Below are positions 1 to 45,007 of a DNA stretch of 45,007 nt, piece by piece; position 1 is the first letter of the stretch, and every line of letters begins with the position of its first letter. The position numbers and the translations under genes were made by a program. A model generated the notes under the pieces. It was not told where the DNA came from, did no database searches, and was given only the letters and a program-made list of their open reading frames with translations. The stretch is from a phage. Location: assembly GCA_014469095.1 (NCBI GenBank), contig GCA_014469095.1_4330.1. One strand, written 5' to 3'.

Positions 1-30
1 AAAAAAAATCCCGGCTGGGTCAGGGCCGGG
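1..30 (-). terminator. Rho-independent terminator closing the leftward lysis operon
   Basis: Inverted repeat CCCGGC/GCCGGG (approx 10-15 and 25-30) followed on the minus strand by a T run (plus 1-8 is A8); lies 66 nt past the endolysin stop. Confidence 0.6.
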
Positions 31-4120: not shown

Positions 4121-4154
4121 AACCCTCACCCCTCTGTCTTGTTTCAATAAGTGA

Positions 4155-4183: not shown

Positions 4184-4242
4184 GAGAATAGTTACGTTGC
4201 CGTTGTGATTCTTTCGTTTCTTAAAAGAGTACGCAACGCAGT

Positions 4243-4262
4243 GGGTGGGCGTTAGCCCACCC
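4243..4262. other. GC-rich perfect hairpin in the 0.4 kb non-coding spacer
   Basis: GGGTGGGC-GTTA-GCCCACCC, 8-bp stem, no adjacent T run; function unknown. Confidence 0.4.
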
Positions 4263-4558
4263 CAGCGGAGTGAAGTACTCTCTACCTCGCCCACGGCAAC
4301 TATAGAAACTTTTAATTATCAGATACTTAAGAGATATGCTGCCGATGAGAATAGAGCTTGCCCAGGGCAACCGGAGATACTTAGAAAAGAAAGTTACGGT
4401 AATTTTTATGTTCAGTAATCTGCCGCTTAACACTTCGCTTGCGCTTTGGCGCAGCTGCGTTTCAAGCGGGTATTACAAGGTGAACAAGAATCAAAGTAAC
4501 TAAGATATAGAAGCACCTTAAACGAAGATTTTCATAATGTCAATAGGTGTGATTATGT

Positions 4559-4619: not shown

Positions 4620-4772
4620 ATGGTTACTTTGACAGAAGAACAGTTGAAAGAGTTGCTGATAGAAGCGTGGTTTAACGGGCATAACGAGAGCAGATACTGC
4701 CCTAATAAATACGGCACAGCTACAGTGTTCGCACGGGAAACAATTAAGGAGATTAAAGATGACGCAGAATGA
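4620..4772 (+). CDS. Hypothetical protein, 50 aa
   Basis: ORF track 4587..4772; the TTG at 4587 lies inside the predicted -10, so the ATG at 4620 (SD GAGGG) is preferred. Confidence 0.45.
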   Translation: MVTLTEEQLKELLIEAWFNGHNESRYCPNKYGTATVFARETIKEIKDDAE

Positions 4773-4929
4773 AGTAGCTGAGCGTATCGGGGTTACTCGT
4801 CGCACATTGAATAACTGGTTAAAGAATGGGAAATTCCCGGATTGCTGTATCCGCATTATGGGTCGCCGTCAGCCAGGTACGTTCGACCCGGAGAAAGTGG
4901 AAGCGTGGATTAAGGAGAACGTAAAATGA
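4759..4929 (+). CDS. AlpA/excisionase-like HTH DNA-binding protein, 56 aa
   Basis: Not in track; MTQNEVAERIGVTRRTLNNWLKNGKFP... has the layout of AlpA-type HTH regulators; SD AGGAGA; stop overlaps the next ATG. Confidence 0.5.
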   Translation: MTQNEVAERIGVTRRTLNNWLKNGKFPDCCIRIMGRRQPGTFDPEKVEAWIKENVK

Positions 4930-7820: not shown

Positions 7821-7839
7821 AAGGGGCTTTAAGCCCCTT
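7821..7839. terminator. Bidirectional intrinsic terminator between convergent genes
   Basis: AAGGGGCT-TTA-AGCCCCTT perfect palindrome with T-rich flanks; overlaps the stop of the HTH gene. Confidence 0.65.
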
Positions 7840-8044
7840 CACCTAACGCCAGCCACTTGGCGTCTACTTCCAGAACTTCCGCCAGTTTGAACAGCGTTGC
7901 CGGGCGGACGTCCTGAGTTACTCCAAGTGCCAGTTGGTTAATCGCGCCCTGGGAAACGCCGGTCAGGGCCGCCAAACGGCGCTGGGAGATGCCGAGTTCT
8001 TTACGGCGTTGTTCTACACGGATACCTAGTTCAGATGGTTGCAT
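7829..8044 (-). CDS. XRE/Cro-type helix-turn-helix transcriptional regulator, 71 aa
   Basis: ORF track; LGISQRRLAALTGVSQGAINQL is a classic XRE HTH; SD AGGAG; transcribed opposite to the flanking early genes. Confidence 0.8.
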   Translation of the reverse strand: MQPSELGIRVEQRRKELGISQRRLAALTGVSQGAINQLALGVTQDVRPATLFKLAEVLEVDAKWLALGEGA

Positions 8045-8064
8045 GTCAATTACTCCTTAGTCAG

Positions 8065-8094
8065 TTGATATGTGAATAGTACCATATTAATTAT
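8065..8094 (+). promoter_or_regulatory. Promoter/operator element with dyad core; its complement carries TACTAT for the HTH gene
   Basis: TTGATA-TGTGAATAGTACCATAT-TAATTA; the core GAATAGTACCATATT overlaps a minus-strand TACTAT about 30 nt upstream of the HTH gene SD. Confidence 0.4.
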
Positions 8095-8108
8095 TTTAGA
8101 AAAGCCCA

Positions 8109-8137
8109 TTGACATGTGAATAGTTCGCTATTATAGT
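8109..8137 (+). promoter_or_regulatory. Sigma70-like promoter, type B (TTGACA-N17-TATAGT) with dyad core
   Basis: TTGACA-TGTGAATAGTTCGCTAT-TATAGT; 28 nt upstream of the 8166 ATG. Confidence 0.65.
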
Positions 8138-8165
8138 TAGCCCATACCAAACGAGAGGGGCGGAT

Positions 8166-27452: not shown

Positions 27453-27559
27453 TCTTTAATCCTTTGGTTAAGAGGTTACTGGTTAAAGGAAATGCGCCAG
27501 ACGGGAACCACCCGCTTTTCGTGTGCGACACTAGGCGCAAAATTATTCTAGCACACTAC

Positions 27560-27588
27560 TTGCACACCCCAATATAATAGCGTACTAT
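27560..27588 (+). promoter_or_regulatory. Sigma70-like promoter, type A (TTGCAC-N17-TACTAT) driving the rightward cassette
   Basis: TTGCAC-ACCCCAATATAATAGCG-TACTAT-TCAC. Confidence 0.6.
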
Positions 27589-27630
27589 TCACTTACACCA
27601 ACGATGTTATCTCAAATCAGGAGTTATGTT

Positions 27631-27822
27631 ATGACCGGTATCACTATGTTCTTCTTAATTATTTTTGTAGCCGTTTATTTTATCCCGTTTTTGGTGGCAC
27701 ATATGCGTAACCATAAAGCAAAGCTGGCGATATTCATGGCTAACTTATTTCTCGGGTGGATTCTGTTGCCGTGGGTATTCATTTTAATCTGGGCTTGCAA
27801 CTCGAACGTGAAAGAGAAGTAG
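27631..27822 (+). CDS. Superinfection-immunity-like small membrane protein (T4 Imm-like)
   Basis: ORF track 27604..27822; ATG at 27631 with SD CAGGAG; YFIPFLVAHMRNHKAKLAIFMANLFLGWILLPWVFILIWA matches the recalled Imm-family signature YF-P...R-H-N...NL-LGW...W..LIWA. Confidence 0.6.
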   Translation: MTGITMFFLIIFVAVYFIPFLVAHMRNHKAKLAIFMANLFLGWILLPWVFILIWACNSNVKEK

Positions 27823-27860
27823 GCTACTATAAGACAAATCCTAAACACGAGGAAGTAAGC

Positions 27861-28991
27861 ATGGCCCAGAAGAAAATAACCGACGAGCAATTACAGGAAG
27901 AATTGAACGCCGGGATGAAGAATATCGATATCGCCCGTAAATACGGAATCTCAGACCGCGTTATCCGAATACGTAAAGCTAAGCTGGCTAAGAAAGGCGT
28001 AGGCCACGGGCGGGACGTAAGCCACCTTGTACCAGACGGCTACAAGATTAAAGGCACGTCGTCTCTGGTGGACGAGTTCGGTAACACTAAGTTGCAGTGG
28101 GTTAAGACAGACACCGATGCCGAACGTCAGGTTGAGTTGATGAAAGCCGTAGTCGAAGGCATGAAGTCGGAGATTACTCCCGTTCCGCCAGTTAAGGCCG
28201 CCCGGACTAAACGTGACGACAAGCTGCTTAACCTGTACACCGTGTCTGATTTCCATCTCGGTATGTTAGCCTGGGCTGACGAGAGCGGCGACGACTGGGA
28301 TATGAAAATCGCGGAGGACTTATTCTCTCGTTGGTTTGATGCTGCGTTTCAGAAAGCACCGGATGCAGGTACGGGGGTTATTAATCTTCTTGGCGACTTA
28401 GCTCACTTCGATAGTCTTGACGCCGTTACACCGGCGAGTGGTCATGTCCTTGACGCCGACACGCGTTACCAGAAACTTGTCCGCTACATGATTCGCATGG
28501 TCCGCCGTGTTGTTGATATGGCTCTGGTTAAGCATAAAACTGTTCGCTTGCTTATAGTTCAGGGGAACCACGACGAATCCGGGATGATTTGGTTGGCTGA
28601 GATGTTCAGTACGCTGTACGACAATGAGCCGCGCGTGTTCGTCGATACGTCGCCGGATGTTTACAAGATGGTGCAACACGGCAAAACGACGCTGTTCTTC
28701 CATCACGGGCATAAAGCACGATTCGACGCTATCGAACCGGTTATGATTGCCAAGTTCCGTAAAGCGTTCGGCGAGAGTGTTTACAGCTACGCCCACGTAG
28801 GCCATCTGCACCACCAGAAGATTGTAGAAAGCCGTAACATGATTGTTGAGCAACACCGCACCTTAGCGGCTAAAGACGCCTACGCCTCTCGCGGCGGATG
28901 GATGTCGGGCCGCAGTGCAAATGTAATTACTTATAGCGCCGAATATGGCGAGGTCGCACGTTTAACTATTTCACCGGAGATGCTGGGATGA
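27861..28991 (+). CDS. HTH-fused calcineurin-like metallophosphoesterase (Mre11/SbcD-type motifs)
   Basis: ORF track 27756..28991; ATG at 27861 with SD GAGGAAG; N-terminal HTH-like NIDIARKYGISDRVIRIRKAKL; phosphoesterase motifs VSDFHLG, LLGDLAHFD, LIVQGNHDESG, FHHGH. Confidence 0.65.
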   Translation: MAQKKITDEQLQEELNAGMKNIDIARKYGISDRVIRIRKAKLAKKGVGHGRDVSHLVPDGYKIKGTSSLVDEFGNTKLQWVKTDTDAERQVELMKAVVEGMKSEITPVPPVKAARTKRDDKLLNLYTVSDFHLGMLAWADESGDDWDMKIAEDLFSRWFDAAFQKAPDAGTGVINLLGDLAHFDSLDAVTPASGHVLDADTRYQKLVRYMIRMVRRVVDMALVKHKTVRLLIVQGNHDESGMIWLAEMFSTLYDNEPRVFVDTSPDVYKMVQHGKTTLFFHHGHKARFDAIEPVMIAKFRKAFGESVYSYAHVGHLHHQKIVESRNMIVEQHRTLAAKDAYASRGGWMSGRSANVITYSAEYGEVARLTISPEMLG

Positions 28992-29476
28992 AAGATATTG
29001 TAATTTTCGATTTAGACGGGACATTGGCCGACGGTACCCATCGCTTACACCTGTTACCAAAAGATAACTACGGAGAAACGTGGGCGTGGAAGCCATTTAA
29101 CATGGCCTGCAAAGATGACGCTCCGATATACGACAATATCCATTTGTGTAGCGTACTGTGGCATTCCGGACTTACTATAATTATCCTTACCGGGCGAAGT
29201 GATGACGCTGAGGAGGAGACTCGCGAATGGTTACGAGAGAATAACGTTAGGTTTGACACGCTAATCATGCGCAGCAAACACGACAACAGAAAAGACATCG
29301 TAATTAAAGAAGAGGTGTTGCGTGCTTTCGGACTGGAAAGAATCTTGTGTGCGTTCGACGACTCTCCAGCGGTAATAAAGCATTTCCGTGACCTCGGCAT
29401 AACCGCACACGCAGTTACCGAATACGACTGTAACGGGAACTCTACACACTTAAAACCACACGGGAGCGATAAATAA
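28988..29476 (+). CDS. HAD-superfamily phosphatase resembling the T4 polynucleotide kinase 3-prime phosphatase domain
   Basis: ORF track; IVIFDLDGTLADG (DxDGT), IILTGRSDD and RKDIVIKEE, recalled as close to the T4 Pnk C-terminal domain (VIFDVDGTLA, VVVSGRESG, RKDDVVKEE). Confidence 0.65.
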   Translation: MKDIVIFDLDGTLADGTHRLHLLPKDNYGETWAWKPFNMACKDDAPIYDNIHLCSVLWHSGLTIIILTGRSDDAEEETREWLRENNVRFDTLIMRSKHDNRKDIVIKEEVLRAFGLERILCAFDDSPAVIKHFRDLGITAHAVTEYDCNGNSTHLKPHGSDK

Positions 29477-30030
29477 TGGCTAAGGTAATTATTCTTAATG
29501 GCCCTGCGGGTTGCGGGAAAGACACGCTTGCTATGGCGCTGGTAGAAATGGGCTTTGCGAAAGGAACTACCAGTTTCAAGAATCCAATGTTCAATATTGC
29601 TTTGGCAGCGTTAGGCCAGGATGCTTACCACGAATTTCTCGACGGCTACGACGACCGGGCGCGGAAAGAAAAACCCGAGGGTTTTCTTAATGGGTTGTCC
29701 CGCCGCCGGTTAATGATTGCCATTTCTGAGCAATTCATTAAACCGGTATTCGGCGATGATTATTTCGGTAAGTATCTTGCTGAAAACTTGCCTGACGGCG
29801 ACGAAGTTTTTGTAGTGTCCGATGGTGGATTCGCCAGTGAAGTTGCCCCTATCGTCGCCGCGGGGCATGACGTGCGAATCGTCCGCCTCCATCGTGACGG
29901 CTATACGTTCATCTGCGATAGCCGTGGCTATCTGTACGATGTTAGTGGTGTAAAAGATTACGACACCTACATCATACCGGGTGACGTTAAATCGAACGTT
30001 ATAGACATTGCTTTAAAATTAGGTTTGTAA
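29476..30030 (+). CDS. P-loop kinase, dNMP-kinase-like (T4 gene 1 type); polynucleotide kinase is the alternative
   Basis: ORF track; P-loop GPAGCGKDT (the GKDT variant recalled for phage dNMP kinases), SRRRLMIAI; start overlaps the phosphatase stop by 1 nt. Confidence 0.55.
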   Translation: MAKVIILNGPAGCGKDTLAMALVEMGFAKGTTSFKNPMFNIALAALGQDAYHEFLDGYDDRARKEKPEGFLNGLSRRRLMIAISEQFIKPVFGDDYFGKYLAENLPDGDEVFVVSDGGFASEVAPIVAAGHDVRIVRLHRDGYTFICDSRGYLYDVSGVKDYDTYIIPGDVKSNVIDIALKLGL

Positions 30031-30034
30031 GAAA

Positions 30035-30061
30035 AAGGCCCCGAAAGGGGCCTTAGTTTTA
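30035..30061. terminator. Bidirectional intrinsic terminator (AAGGCCCC-N4-GGGGCCTT family)
   Basis: AAGGCCCC-GAAA-GGGGCCTT then AGTTTTA. Confidence 0.75.
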
Positions 30062-31231
30062 TGCGTAGGTGATACGTTGAATTACGATAGACGACTGGTA
30101 CTGATTGCCGGTAGCCTGGCCTTCAATGGACTGAGTGATTGACTCAGGCCCACCAATCTCAGGTGTAACCGCCGTAAGCTCTGCACGTTTCAAACTGAAA
30201 GACATAGCCCCGTTTACCCCTGCCAGAATAGAGTTAATCTCTACATGCTGCTCGTTGATAAACTTCTGAATCATCGCCATGTCGTACAGCTTGCCAGAGA
30301 TAGAGAATGTGTTAGCTGCGCGTCCACGTTCGACGAACGCCACGCTACTGTTACCGAGTTCGAACTGCGCGGAAGCTCCGTTGTCGTTGGTGATGGTGAG
30401 AGTATCGCAACGCAACGGCGTGGAGCCATCGAACACCGACACATCTACCGACGAGAACGGCTCATCGGTGAACGTAACCTGAGAGAAATCAGAGCCAGAC
30501 GGCGGCGCGGTAAGAATCTCCTGACTCAGGCCGATGAACGGGAAGCTGCCGGTGACCATGGCGTTAACCGCCTGCTCTACGGTAAAGCCAGAGATTTCCA
30601 CACCTTTGGTCAGCATGTACGCGTCCGGGTTACCACACTGGCCCTTGAACCACGTCAGGATGGAGAACGTCTTACACGCGTTACCGGTTTCCAGCTTGTC
30701 GCCAGTTTTTGCGTCAGTGGTTACTGTCTCTACTGTCAGCGTGTGCTGAATACCTGCGCCCGTAACTACCAGAGCGGAAACCGCGGTCACGATAAACGGT
30801 TTTGCGTTGTCGCCGGTTAAGTCGGTGAACGCAATAAGGTCGCCAACTTCTACACCGTCAGTAATGAAGCTACCGGCAGCGCGGGTGAATGTTTTACCTG
30901 CTGGGGCGACCGTAATTTCGGCGCCAGTAATCTCTACCCCAGCTTGCCACGTAGAAGTCATCGCTCCCGCAAGGAAATCATCCTGGCTACGAGAGCTAAG
31001 TTCGATGGCGTACTCCCCGCTAACCTGTTTGTTACCGGTTCGGATGGATGTAGTTTCACGGCTGCCGTCCAGTTCGTTGGAAGTCAGTGCATCGCGGGTT
31101 ACAGCGGGAACGCCGCCCGTGTTACGCAACGGCGACCATACCGGGTTAGTCGGTGTTACGCCAAAGGTATTTTCCGCCACATAGAATTGCGCGGTATTCG
31201 CGCCCTTAAAAGGAGTTGTAGCCATATTCAC
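30059..31231 (-). CDS. Major tail (tube) protein
   Basis: ORF track; 390 aa, Thr/Gly/Ser-rich, positioned between the tail completion genes and the chaperones. Confidence 0.6.
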   Translation of the reverse strand: MNMATTPFKGANTAQFYVAENTFGVTPTNPVWSPLRNTGGVPAVTRDALTSNELDGSRETTSIRTGNKQVSGEYAIELSSRSQDDFLAGAMTSTWQAGVEITGAEITVAPAGKTFTRAAGSFITDGVEVGDLIAFTDLTGDNAKPFIVTAVSALVVTGAGIQHTLTVETVTTDAKTGDKLETGNACKTFSILTWFKGQCGNPDAYMLTKGVEISGFTVEQAVNAMVTGSFPFIGLSQEILTAPPSGSDFSQVTFTDEPFSSVDVSVFDGSTPLRCDTLTITNDNGASAQFELGNSSVAFVERGRAANTFSISGKLYDMAMIQKFINEQHVEINSILAGVNGAMSFSLKRAELTAVTPEIGGPESITQSIEGQATGNQYQSSIVIQRITYA

Positions 31232-35514: not shown

Positions 35515-36216
35515 TTATTTCCTCAGGGCTTTAAGTTGCCGTTCAAATTCGGCAGGGTTCGATTTATACAGGGCTAAACGCTCTGCTTCACTCATGTCTT
35601 TAAACGCTGGTGCGGCCCCGCCGCCTTTGCTACCGGAAGCCCCGCCGCCGGAAGCTGCATTTGCTTTGATCAAATGCGAAAACGCCTTGTGTTCGCGCAG
35701 GTATTTGCGGAACTGTTCCGGGTCAGTCGTGATTACGTTACCGTCTGCACCAACAAACTTAGTAACCACATCATCGCCTTCGAACTCAGTCTTAACGAAC
35801 GGCGCAAGAATGTCCACTGCTTCCGGGGTAATAAAGTCACCCGCGAAAGAGCCTAGCACCGCTTTACGTTCGCTGCCGAGGATACGCTCTGCCATTCTGG
35901 AGATGCGACCGTCTTTCTCGGCTAACACCGGGTCATACTGGCTACGAATCGTCTTTTCGAACTCGTCCATCTTACCAGCGGCTTTTAACGCCTCCTGGTG
36001 CGCGCGCTGCCGTTCTTCTTCGGCCTCTTTTGCTTTGCGAGCGGCTTCTTTCTTCTCCGCCAACAATGCTTCCTGATTAGCCTTAAGCCCAGCAACTTCT
36101 TTCTCAATCAGCGCCTGAACTTCTTCAGCGGTGAACATTTTCGGCGCGTCACCGCCACCAGCTTTATCTTCTGCCCCAGCTTCTTCCTGGAACGGATAAC
36201 GTAAAAAACGATTCAT
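35515..36216 (-). CDS. Scaffolding protein
   Basis: ORF track 35515..36270; ATG at 36216; Ala/Glu/Lys-rich coiled coil directly upstream of the capsid gene. Confidence 0.65.
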   Translation of the reverse strand: MNRFLRYPFQEEAGAEDKAGGGDAPKMFTAEEVQALIEKEVAGLKANQEALLAEKKEAARKAKEAEEERQRAHQEALKAAGKMDEFEKTIRSQYDPVLAEKDGRISRMAERILGSERKAVLGSFAGDFITPEAVDILAPFVKTEFEGDDVVTKFVGADGNVITTDPEQFRKYLREHKAFSHLIKANAASGGGASGSKGGGAAPAFKDMSEAERLALYKSNPAEFERQLKALRK

Positions 36217-36277
36217 AGTCAGTATGTCCCCTGGACGTTGGAACCCGGGCCACCCGGATTTACATGTCAAGAATAAA

Positions 36278-36305
36278 TTATTCCAACATGCAAGGCAACT
36301 ATTCC
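36278..36305. repeat. Repeat block TTATTCCAACAT plus CAACTATTC, copy 1
   Basis: Both short motifs recur at 37045-37072, flanking the spanin genes. Confidence 0.5.
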
Positions 36306-36562
36306 AGAATATTCCTCACGTAATCCTGCAACATAAACACTTTCAGCCTCAGTTGCCGTACACATTCAGCGTTCTGAACGTCGATAGCTAAATCTTCGTC
36401 GGCATCGCTACTCGGCGGTGCCAGCTTGCACGGCGGCTGCATCATCGTCGTATCCGGGGATGGAGTTGGCGTTTGCGACGGCGCGGGACTTGAGCTGCAC
36501 GCGCTCAGGGTCAAAAGCGCACACACTGCGACCAGGCGTTTTAATGTACTTAACGACTTCAC
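36299..36562 (-). CDS. Rz1: o-spanin (Rz1-like outer-membrane lipoprotein), overlapping the Rz gene in the +1 frame
   Basis: ORF track; GTG start with SD GAGGTGA; signal peptide ending in lipobox LSAC; Pro-rich mature region; starts inside the Rz gene and extends past it. Confidence 0.65.
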   Translation of the reverse strand: MKSLSTLKRLVAVCALLTLSACSSSPAPSQTPTPSPDTTMMQPPCKLAPPSSDADEDLAIDVQNAECVRQLRLKVFMLQDYVRNILE

Positions 36563-36794
36563 GGGTGATCACCTCTGATTTCGTCTTGCCTTCGTTGTCA
36601 GCGGCTGCGGCCTTTGATTCGTCCTGCTGCTGCCGTTGTGTTTTCTTAGTCATCTCGGCCTGTGCTTTCTGCTGTTGCTGAGAAACGAGATTCGCCCGGC
36701 CTTCGTTCCAGCCGATGCGGTACTGGTAGATGCCGTGTGTGTAAGCCAGGATGATGAAACATGCTCCCGCTACGACAGTTGCTTTAAGATTCAT
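36408..36794 (-). CDS. Rz: i-spanin (Rz-like inner-membrane protein)
   Basis: ORF track; N-terminal TM helix then a Gln/Lys/Ala-rich helical periplasmic region; SD AAGGAG; carries the embedded lipoprotein gene. Confidence 0.65.
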   Translation of the reverse strand: MNLKATVVAGACFIILAYTHGIYQYRIGWNEGRANLVSQQQQKAQAEMTKKTQRQQQDESKAAAADNEGKTKSEVITREVVKYIKTPGRSVCAFDPERVQLKSRAVANANSIPGYDDDAAAVQAGTAE

Positions 36795-37044
36795 GTTTCT
36801 CCTTTCTCGATAAGTAAAGCCCCGCCTTAAAGCGGGGCGCTAGTCCTTATCATTTAAACATAGAAACGGCGTAATCTCAGTAAACCAGTTACTTTTTACA
36901 CAAGCAATAGAGTATGGCCCGTCCGAACGCGTCAGCGTAACTACACTCAGGACTTACGTCCCGCTCCGTTACCTGCCCGCGCCGCGGTCGCTTGTTCATA
37001 CTTCACAAGCTCAGGTGGAGCTTATCATATTTTTAGTGAAAAGT

Positions 37045-37072
37045 CAACTATTCGAATAGTTTATTCCAACAT
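37045..37072. repeat. Perfect 16-bp palindrome AACTATTCGAATAGTT followed by TTATTCCAACAT, copy 2
   Basis: The palindrome carries the CTATT/AATAG half-sites of the promoter core in everted order; lies upstream of the spanin genes and of the 37114 promoter. Confidence 0.5.
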
Positions 37073-37113
37073 TTACAATTGAGCGGAATAACTGGAATAA
37101 GTAAATAAATAGT

Positions 37114-37142
37114 TTGCACACCCCAATATAATAGGGTACTAT
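37114..37142 (+). promoter_or_regulatory. Sigma70-like promoter, type A (TTGCAC-N17-TACTAT)
   Basis: TTGCAC-ACCCCAATATAATAGGG-TACTAT-TCAG, then SD GCAGGAGGTG. Confidence 0.65.
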
Positions 37143-37169
37143 TCAGTTAACTTAAGCAGGAGGTGAAAA

Positions 37170-37373
37170 ATGTATGCAATTTGCGAAGTAGTTCAAGAGT
37201 TCGATGAAGAGTTCGACGGTGACTTGTGCCGTGTTAAAAAGGTTCTGCAGGTTTTCCCTGACGTAAACTCCGCTAACAAGGCATTAGAGCTATTCGAACC
37301 TGGAAGATATGGGGATTATGACACTGTTCTGAGGGTGGTGCATGAACAGAAATTAGGTACAAAATTCCGTTGA
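37170..37373 (+). CDS. Hypothetical acidic protein, 67 aa (single-gene cassette)
   Basis: ORF track; own promoter and terminator, opposite in orientation to the surrounding head genes. Confidence 0.6.
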   Translation: MYAICEVVQEFDEEFDGDLCRVKKVLQVFPDVNSANKALELFEPGRYGDYDTVLRVVHEQKLGTKFR

Positions 37374-37377
37374 AAAC

Positions 37378-37401
37378 TAAGGCCCCGTAATGGGGCCTTT
37401 T
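37378..37401. terminator. Bidirectional intrinsic terminator (AAGGCCCC family)
   Basis: AAGGCCCC-GTAAT-GGGGCCTT then TTAT. Confidence 0.7.
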
Positions 37402-37402
37402 A

Positions 37403-38952: not shown

Positions 38953-38981
38953 TTGCAGACACCAACATAATAGGGTACTAT
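38953..38981 (+). promoter_or_regulatory. Sigma70-like promoter, type A (TTGCAG-N17-TACTAT)
   Basis: TTGCAG-ACACCAACATAATAGGG-TACTAT-TCAT. Confidence 0.6.
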
Positions 38982-39016
38982 TCATTGCATCGAAACGAGA
39001 GATAAGGAATTTAGAA

Positions 39017-39298
39017 ATGGCTAAATATTCAAACAGTGATTTATATCTTACATGTGTATGTGTTGATAGCGTTCAGGTAGAGTGTGTCGCTCAGGAGTGG
39101 ACTTCCAGTGAAGAAGATATATTTAAAATAGGGCGCAAGTATTGGCTACACCACGGGTGGTTGACTAGACCTAACGGGGACTCCGATGTGGAACTTTGGT
39201 GGGTAGAGTATCGCGGGCGCTCGTATATCTGTTGGCCCGAAACGAAAAACGGCGCCACCAGTTACACCGCTACCAGCACTGGATTTACATTTGTATAG
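39017..39298 (+). CDS. Hypothetical Cys/Trp-rich protein, 94 aa (single-gene cassette)
   Basis: ORF track 38909..39298; ATG at 39017 with SD AAGGAA; own promoter and terminator between the portal and head-morphogenesis genes. Confidence 0.6.
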   Translation: MAKYSNSDLYLTCVCVDSVQVECVAQEWTSSEEDIFKIGRKYWLHHGWLTRPNGDSDVELWWVEYRGRSYICWPETKNGATSYTATSTGFTFV

Positions 39299-39303
39299 AT
39301 AAA

Positions 39304-39330
39304 AAGGCCCCTTATGGGGCCTTAATTTTA
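39304..39330. terminator. Bidirectional intrinsic terminator (AAGGCCCC family)
   Basis: AAGGCCCC-TTAT-GGGGCCTT then AATTTTA. Confidence 0.75.
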
Positions 39331-39345
39331 TCTCTGTTGTTGGTC

Positions 39346-44956: not shown

Positions 44957-44985
44957 AATATAATAGGGTCGAGGATAATAGTCAA
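44957..44985 (-). promoter_or_regulatory. Sigma70-like promoter (TTGACT-N17-TATATT) for the right-end early block
   Basis: Minus strand reads TTGACT-ATTATCCTCGACCCTAT-TATATT; the plus strand carries a partial core AATATAATAGGG. Confidence 0.5.
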
Positions 44986-45007
44986 CTAGTCATCACAGAA
45001 AATAGAT

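Follow-up and report, generated by a model that had tools for sequence, protein, structure and literature searches.

A conserved structured leader RNA upstream of the spanin genes in the head-gene cluster of a Kagunavirus genome

The window analysed here, a phage DNA of 45,007 nucleotides (nt; contig GCA_014469095.1_4330.1 of GenBank assembly GCA_014469095.1), carries an overlapping Rz/Rz1-type spanin pair on the minus strand at 36299-36794, which lies among the head genes, apart from the holin and endolysin genes, with a block of repeats on either side. In megablast comparisons of the spanin region and the window ends, the window is 97-99.9% identical to Escherichia phage vB_EcoS-22664BS2 (Kagunavirus, Guernseyvirinae). 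The question raised by this locus is how a spanin pair at such a site is expressed, and the original prediction, made from the sequence, offered two answers: that spanin expression is tied to the capsid operon, or that the region is a separate regulatory node. Each of these is right in part. The position in the head-gene cluster is ancestral and the spanins abut the minor capsid gene in Dhillonvirus, which favours the first answer; in the window, the pair is also equipped with a separate promoter-like region, a structured leader and a hairpin/terminator, which favours the second. The moderate interest of the region rests only on this structured leader RNA, of which we found no description in the papers searched.

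The leader is framed on its 5′ side by a sigma-70-like promoter candidate, P1 (37019..37047, minus strand), which consists of a -35 hexamer TTGACT at 37047-37042, a 17-nt spacer and an extended -10 element TGaTAAGCT at 37027-37019. The hexamers of P1 are conserved in all relatives compared, and the record of phage fBC-Eco01 (OM272052) independently lists a predicted host promoter here, together with a terminator just before the spanin. The structured 5′ domain of the leader (36901..37014, minus) is composed of hairpin H1 (37010-36990), the three-part rod H2 (36987-36923) and the linker GGA(A/C)GGGCCAUACUCUAUUGCUU. The 3′ part (36809..36900, minus) contains the AU-rich conserved stretch CUGAGAUUACGCCGUUUCUAUGUUUAAAUGAUAAGGA, followed by the GC-rich hairpin GCCCCGC-UUUAA-GGCGGGGC at 36838-36819 and a weak U-tract, UUUACUUAUC, at 36818-36809, which together were matched in a terminator scan. 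The leader ends 15 nt before the Shine-Dalgarno sequence of Rz, whose ribosome-binding site AAAGGAG (36805-36799) occupies the segment 36795..36808 (minus). The gap between the hairpin and the ATG is only approximately 24 nt, which leaves no room for another promoter, so that the Rz/Rz1 mRNA would have to be produced by read-through of the leader.

Across 181 phage records, the stretch of approximately 320 nt that precedes Rz is 95-99% identical, which is far above the surrounding genes; for contrast, homologs of Rz were found in 665 phage records by tblastn, and the protein is less than 80% identical in more than 500 of them. In relative L035, the leader stretch is 93-98% identical to the window and the 3′ half of Rz together with Rz1 only 67-78%, whereas relative L029 exhibits the reverse pattern, and these breaks of identity indicate that the leader element is an exchangeable module. 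Three allelic types are present, namely a Kagunavirus type, a Jerseyvirus type and a third type, which some relatives (L095, fKuEco01 and Golestan) carry as a second copy in their early region and which has a near-identical promoter without the half-site arrays described below. The window carries a single copy of the element. The slot that holds the second copy in approximately 20-43 relatives (8470-8725 in L095) corresponds in the window to the noncoding stretch 4190-4550 (minus), which contains a promoter-like site, TTGACA-17-TAAGGT, and the hairpin GGGTGGGC-TAAC-GCCCACCC. Downstream of this stretch is the promoter of the unit whose last genes are holin and endolysin, and 368 phage records show conservation of parts of the stretch. 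Additionally, an open reading frame (ORF) of 36 aa that is annotated as a "hypothetical protein" in relatives (window 36889-36999, minus) lies inside the structured RNA; its ATG falls within the loop of H1, and the Jerseyvirus type lacks this ATG, so that the ORF is probably not a gene and its annotation should be corrected.

All types share the same architecture, in which H1 and the three-part rod H2 are followed by the linker GGAAGGGCC...CUAUU, the AU-rich stretch and the GC-rich hairpin. The basal stem of the rod H2 is CCG(C)GGYGCG/CGCRUUCGG, above which lie a middle stem and a distal hairpin. The stem of the 3′ hairpin varies in a compensatory manner among the alleles (GCCCUGC/GCAGGGC, GCCCGGC/GCCGGGC and GCCCGAC/GUCGGGC). 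A covariance model, R1, which was built from the Kagunavirus type only, gives 143 bits for the window, 75 bits for the third (second-copy) type and 38-44 bits for the Jerseyvirus type; no match to R1 was obtained in Cornellvirus, a Klebsiella phage, Dhillonvirus or phage HK022 (the last searched up to E=10). In the alignment fitted to the model, 95.2% of the cells are paired, compared with 80.1% in shuffles and 27-41% in slid controls, and 15 of the 29 pairs change on both sides, with a covariation score of 0.385 (vs 0.143) that is reached by 0 of 500 shuffles. A MAFFT-based RNAalifold calculation returned the basal stem only, with the distal hairpins of the three types misaligned, and the model-based alignment was used instead. 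Additionally, the fold of the spanin-sense strand is 4-12 kcal/mol more stable than that of the antisense strand in all six variants (6/6), owing to G-U pairs, which suggests that transcription of the RNA follows the orientation of the promoter.

The element does not correspond to a catalogued family. When the whole window was compared with Rfam 15 at the gathering threshold, no family was matched at the leader (the sole match in the window is int-alpA at 27477-27541), and permissive E-values yielded chance-level matches only, the best of which in 36700-37200 is wcaG, with 16 bits against a gathering threshold of 42 and E=1.5. A search of bacterial genome and metagenome contigs with the gapped pattern CCGCGGYGCG-N25-55-ACGCRTTCGGA is dominated by chance matches in GC-rich DNA; among the matches listed, R1 recognizes no true homolog in at least 120 bacterial loci, and the metagenome loci contain Kagunavirus-type copies only. 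Literature searches for transcriptomes or noncoding RNAs of Guernseyvirinae yielded no relevant description, and the papers on Schulenberg (PMC6763661), fBC-Eco01 (PMC9825357, OM272052) and VB_EcoS-Golestan (PMC7203180) do not describe a structured RNA, its allelic types or a second copy.

The reading that we prefer, and to which we give about an even chance of being correct, is that the leader acts in cis to dose transcription into Rz/Rz1, with P1 and P2 as promoters and the spanins at their ancestral position in the head cluster. The upstream head transcript would be stopped at a bidirectional terminator at 37375-37402, and a new transcription unit would start at P1 (TTGACT-17-TGaTAAGCT). 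The first ~200 nt of this transcript would form H1, H2, the single-stranded linker and the GC-rich hairpin with its poor U-tract, and the leader would thereby set, in cis, the fraction of transcription that continues into Rz/Rz1. The second promoter candidate, P2 (36270-36298, minus; -35 TTGCCT at 36298-36293, 17-nt spacer, -10 TATTCT at 36275-36270), which is part of the downstream block, would boost the highly expressed scaffold and capsid genes, and in both blocks GAATAG joined to the -35 hexamer, together with phased GGAATA sites, would serve a phage protein. With U-tracts as poor as UUUACUUAU and, in the Jerseyvirus type, UUAGCGUAU, read-through is probably substantial, and the RNA is not a typical small RNA (sRNA) of the Hfq type.

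Several observations weigh against a cis-acting leader. With 8 of 12 consensus positions matched, neither P1 nor P2 reaches the threshold of a simple consensus scan. The alignment on which covariation was counted leans towards the structure to which it was fitted, and the independent covariation events are few since only about three or four clades contribute. In L095, the second copy comes with a separate hairpin and another promoter after it, and fits a free-standing RNA gene equally well. Additionally, no antiterminator gene, conserved alternative pairing or ligand-type motif was found. By inspection only, with no systematic test, no conserved anti-terminator pairing between H2 and the 3′ hairpin was detected; no Q-family or N-like gene is annotated in the close relative Bas72, according to its PHROG-based annotation; and the candidate helix-turn-helix (HTH) proteins of the window match HTH_17 or XRE-type domains only, although not every small ORF was scanned. 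Two candidates were rejected. The AlpA of P. aeruginosa has a Q-fold and approximately 150 aa, whereas the AlpA-like protein of the window is a 56-aa HTH_17 protein (4759-4929), so that the names alone prove no relationship. For the linker, a boxA-like reading was considered, but ACUCUAUU and GCUCUUUA agree at only 5 of 8 positions.

A layout of this kind is known from phage lambda, whose late region consists of PR′, qut, the 194-nt 6S RNA and tR′, followed by S-R-Rz/Rz1 and the head genes. The two are alike in that a sigma-70 promoter (here a candidate), an untranslated RNA of ~200 nt and a hairpin/terminator lie directly before lysis or late structural genes. However, the promoters of the present locus are predicted only, the U-tract is weak and a Q-family gene is absent from the annotation of Bas72. 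A -10-like pause element is not conserved either: TATGAA is present in the H1 loop of the Kagunavirus type, and the Jerseyvirus type is without this segment. Moreover, the RNA described here is strongly structured and conserved, whereas the lambda 6S RNA is not known to be so.

The presence of a second copy in relatives makes two other readings serious rivals. In the first, which we consider possible but rather unlikely, the element is a factor-independent processive antitermination RNA like the put RNAs of HK022, which work through the beta′ zinc-binding domain; after its transcription from P1, it would bind polymerase and carry it through the leader hairpin and the later stops of the late operon; the second copy of relatives would serve the unit ending in holin and endolysin likewise. 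Both the putL/putR RNAs and the leader are promoter-proximal and contain two stem-loops (here H1 and H2, supported by covariation) right after the start of transcription, with a long operon downstream in the same orientation and no dedicated protein factor apparent, as is also suggested by the annotation of Bas72. Additionally, the element occurs twice in some genomes, where one copy precedes the spanins and the other the early-left holin/endolysin unit; the promoters of the copies are nearly identical and each copy heads a long operon, which mirrors putL and putR (PMC9378689). However, R1 finds no match in the HK022 genome and there is no detectable homology in sequence or structure. The element is also longer than put (~115 nt vs ~70 nt), the window has one copy only, and the -10-like pause element of putL is not conserved and is missing from the Jerseyvirus type.

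The second rival, which appears similarly doubtful, holds that the element is a free-standing gene for a trans-acting phage sRNA, with its own promoter, RNA and terminator, and that its position upstream of Rz and any read-through into the spanins are incidental. The separate promoter that follows the hairpin of the L095 copy agrees with this, as do the exchange of alleles as a module and the conserved single-stranded stretch, which could be a seed. However, the 3′ hairpin in both types is without the long U tail of Hfq-dependent sRNAs, complementarity of k-mers from the single-stranded part within the phage genome is limited to self-antisense and chance-level 10-11-mers, and Rz has no other promoter.

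To our knowledge, the late-gene control of Kagunaviruses and Jerseyviruses is unstudied, and these phages are widely used in therapy and biocontrol; the leader RNA is potentially useful. If the RNA gates or boosts late and lysis transcription, it would be the second RNA-only control of elongation in phages after put of HK022, whereas trans action would make it a new sRNA of phages. More speculatively, and with a low expectation of being right, the leader may represent a new class of phage regulatory RNA, promoter-proximal, with two hairpins and exchangeable alleles, that drives polymerase into late genes and co-regulates the separated lysis genes; in two-copy relatives, one copy would then head the spanin unit and the other the holin/endolysin unit, without a dedicated protein factor.

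The repeats on either side of the spanins were analysed with respect to P1 and P2. The 12-mer TTATTCCAACAT has exactly two copies, at 36278-36289 and 37061-37072, the 9-mer CAACTATTC likewise (36296-36304 and 37045-37053), and the perfect palindrome AACTATTCGAATAGTT is located at 37046-37061, all of which agrees with the original prediction. Its view that the blocks bracket the spanin pair is not borne out in that form; the blocks are conserved promoter/operator-like arrays in the related upstream regions of two successive promoter candidates, P1 ahead of Rz and P2 ahead of the scaffold gene, each of which is abutted by one half-site array. The 12-mer is unremarkable by itself, since 10 pairs of 12-mers less than 1 kb apart (approximately eight of them independent) are present in the window and approximately three are expected. 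The significant feature of the blocks is instead the density of half-sites: GAATA/TATTC occurs 121 times in the 45 kb, and the two 80-nt intervals in which it is densest coincide with the blocks, each of which contains 5 of these sites.

On the spanin strand, the upstream block reads TTATTCC-AG-TTATTCC, 17 nt, GGAATAA-ACTATTC|GAATAG-TTGACT. The two direct TTATTCC half-sites, 9 nt apart at 37085..37100 (minus) and ~72-88 nt upstream of the inferred leader start, are invariant in the Kagunavirus and Jerseyvirus types. They are followed at 37046..37072 (minus) by ATGTTGGAATAA and the palindrome, whose GAATAG half abuts the -35 hexamer; the perfect palindrome is retained in the Kagunavirus-type allele, and the Jerseyvirus type keeps only one half (TATTC). 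The downstream block (36270..36315, minus), which covers the last o-spanin codons and the spacer ahead of the scaffold gene, reads GGAATAT-TCT-GGAATAG-TTGCCT, then GGAATAA-T-TTATTC, with three GGAATA sites at spacings of 10 and 21 nt and the palindrome GAATAAtTTATTC over the -10 element. The shared 9-mer is GAATAG joined to the first three bases of the -35-like hexamer. In alignments of 11 divergent loci, the half-site words of both blocks are invariant and the bases between them variable; in the downstream block, GGAATATTCTGGAATAGTTGCCTT and GGAATAATTTATTCTTG are essentially invariant around a variable intervening sequence.

The half-site is the same as in the repeated promoter core of this phage, GAATAGT-N3-ACTATTC, which is found at 4148, 8065, 8109, 10933, 14480, 27560, 37114 and 38953. 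This core was earlier reported as a PHIRE motif (PMC9825357), and the Guernseyvirinae papers cited above report a repeated promoter-like motif, tgAATAGTa-ccTATTat-T; the half-site arrays at P1 and P2 are not described there. The phased GGAATA sites are probably bound by a phage DNA-binding protein. A gene for an XRE-type HTH protein (7829-8044, minus) adjoins two tandem GAATAGT-N3-CTATTAT cores, at 8065 and 8109 (window 7829-8138), which is a layout typical of an autoregulated repressor and makes this protein a candidate binder of the half-sites.

A third rival explanation would treat the blocks as traces of recombination, left as boundaries or scars where a mobile cassette with the spanins was inserted in the head operon. 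The direct 12-mer and 9-mer repeats at both ends would fit such an origin, as would the mosaic of the leader and the start of Rz, whose identity breaks against the flanks in L035, L036 and L029. It is nevertheless very improbable, because the position of the spanins predates the blocks, being the same in Dhillonvirus and Cornellvirus, which have no such blocks; in addition, the words differ in order and distance between the two blocks, the 12-mer is only partly conserved, and none of the relatives seen is without spanins at this site. The least plausible explanation, that the conserved stretch acts as DNA (a packaging site, an origin or a primosome site), would account for the extreme nucleotide conservation and the hairpins, but the G-U pairs that favour the spanin-sense fold in all variants and the promoter-like site and terminator-like hairpin that frame the element in the same direction leave it hardly any credit.

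The genes downstream of the leader agree with the Rz/Rz1-type pair of the original prediction, as judged from the ORFs, the Rz-like PHROG families and the N-terminal signals. The i-spanin (Rz-like, 128 aa; 36408..36794, minus) matches phrog_2536 with E=2.5e-55 and has a single N-terminal transmembrane domain (TMD) at residues 5-23 (ATVVAGACFIILAYTHGIY), with a maximum 19-residue hydropathy of 1.59 at residue 5, followed by a periplasmic helix rich in Gln and Lys. The o-spanin (Rz1-like, 87 aa; 36299..36562, minus) matches phrog_1267 over residues 9-86 and phrog_5672 over residues 41-87, and starts with GTG preceded by the Shine-Dalgarno sequence GAGGTGA. Its N-terminus is a signal peptide, MKSLSTLKRLVAVCALLTLSA|CSS, with the lipobox LSA|C and Ser rather than Asp at +2, and its mature part is Pro-rich. 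The TMD and the lipobox were called by heuristic screens, not by TMHMM or SignalP, a lipoprotein being defined by the lipobox [LVI][ASTVI][GAS]C without Asp at +2. When every ORF of the genome was screened in this manner, the o-spanin was the sole one to pass, and since it is the only lipoprotein candidate in a complete genome (see below), there is no second spanin, either beside the endolysin or elsewhere.

The o-spanin (36299-36562) overlaps the i-spanin (36408-36794) in a different frame, which places the pair in the "overlapped" architecture class, and periplasmic cysteines are present in both proteins (Cys92 in Rz; Cys45 and Cys67 in mature Rz1). By its sequence, the pair is an ordinary member of the "Jersey" family, a catalogued set of two-component spanins with overlapped genes that includes those of Jersey-like, K1G-like and HK578-like phages (PMC6139136; prototype lambda Rz/Rz1). 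As in that family, the o-spanin starts inside the i-spanin and extends past its end in another frame; the periplasmic cysteines of both proteins and the homology to Jerseyvirus, K1G-like and HK578-like members agree, and the proteins show no essential difference. The o-spanin is often annotated in GenBank (window 36299-36442; relatives Bas70-76) as an ORF of 47-48 aa without signal peptide and lipobox. This truncated call seems to have been propagated, since the 47-aa profile phrog_5672 matches residues 41-87 only, and the widespread o-spanin records that lack the signal peptide call for correction.

Position 1 of the window corresponds to position 1401 of the vB_EcoS-22664BS2 record and position 45007 to position 1402 (megablast), so that the window ends are contiguous in that phage and the window is therefore a complete Kagunavirus genome, circularly permuted, with an arbitrary opening point. 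The lysis cassette on the minus strand comprises a holin (828-1136), a second holin (563-928) and the endolysin (97-636), with PHROG matches to phrog_2359, phrog_2508 and phrog_7/33703. A terminator, CCCGGC...GCCGGG with T8, lies 3′ of the endolysin at ~28 to 1 (minus) across the window start, and the cassette followed by a terminator at 97-1136 is as originally described. The T-tract of this terminator is cut by the window start (window 1-28 and 44957-45007, minus). Beyond it, at the window end, a promoter-like site, TTGACT-17-TATATT, with a CTATTATA core heads the next block of approximately 10 small genes.

The separation of the spanins from the endolysin is real; the distance of ~35 kb given for it is an artefact of where the circle was opened, since the 35.2 kb in the window shrink to approximately 8.3 kb on the circular map, with the spanins downstream on the same strand. 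Likewise, the spanins do lie between the head-morphogenesis and scaffold genes, as had been noted, but two further genes, one Hoc-like and one small and on the plus strand, intervene before them. The spanins follow the head-morphogenesis/minor capsid gene and precede the scaffold and major capsid genes also in Jerseyvirus Kenya-K2, Cornellvirus VSiA, PhiSTP2 and Dhillonvirus GeorgBuechner, in the last of which the i-spanin directly abuts the minor capsid gene, and this synteny indicates that the position within the head-gene cluster is ancestral and conserved. In phage lambda, Rz/Rz1 lie inside the holin/endolysin cassette, whereas the spanins of this phage lie outside it. As is established for lambda, spanins can build up without harm until holin and endolysin act, so that no physical linkage to the lysis cassette is needed. 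The announcement of Schulenberg describes a holin/antiholin pair and endolysin as "genetically separate" from the i/o-spanins (PMC6763661), the fBC-Eco01 paper reports the same separation (PMC9825357), the gene order agrees in these and the Golestan paper (PMC7203180), and pseT.3/pseT.2 of T4 are a further known unlinked case (PMC6139136). The separation is thus routine for the subfamily and already published, and calls for no new explanation.

Minor features surround the locus. The scaffold gene begins with the ATG at 36216, and its 5′ untranslated region contains the conserved hairpin CCGGGTGGCCCGG (36245..36257, minus). Upstream of P1, a variable insert on the plus strand (37114..37402) consists of a promoter, TTGCAC-17-TACTAT (37114-37149), a 67-aa gene (37170-37373) that matches phrog_27256 (unknown function) and the bidirectional terminator (37375-37402), which is predicted to end the upstream minus-strand head transcript as well. 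The insert is absent from relatives L007, L025, L035 and L038, and its promoter and terminator belong to the repeat families D2 and D3 of the window. It is one of three plus-strand inserts in the minus-strand late cluster (37114-37402, 38953-39333 and 27560-30064), which have in common the promoter TTGCAC-17-TACTAT, with an AATAG...CTATT core, and a family of bidirectional terminators (AAAAGGCCCCnnnnGGGGCCTTAGTTTTA). Finally, the int-alpA RNA at 27477-27541 (minus; 36.6 bits against a gathering threshold of 35.8) has a D2 promoter on one side and the tail-assembly-chaperone gene on the other; it is preceded by an extended -10 element, TGcTAGAAT, and has a terminator-like hairpin at its end, which constitutes a second arrangement of promoter, structured RNA and late gene in the window.

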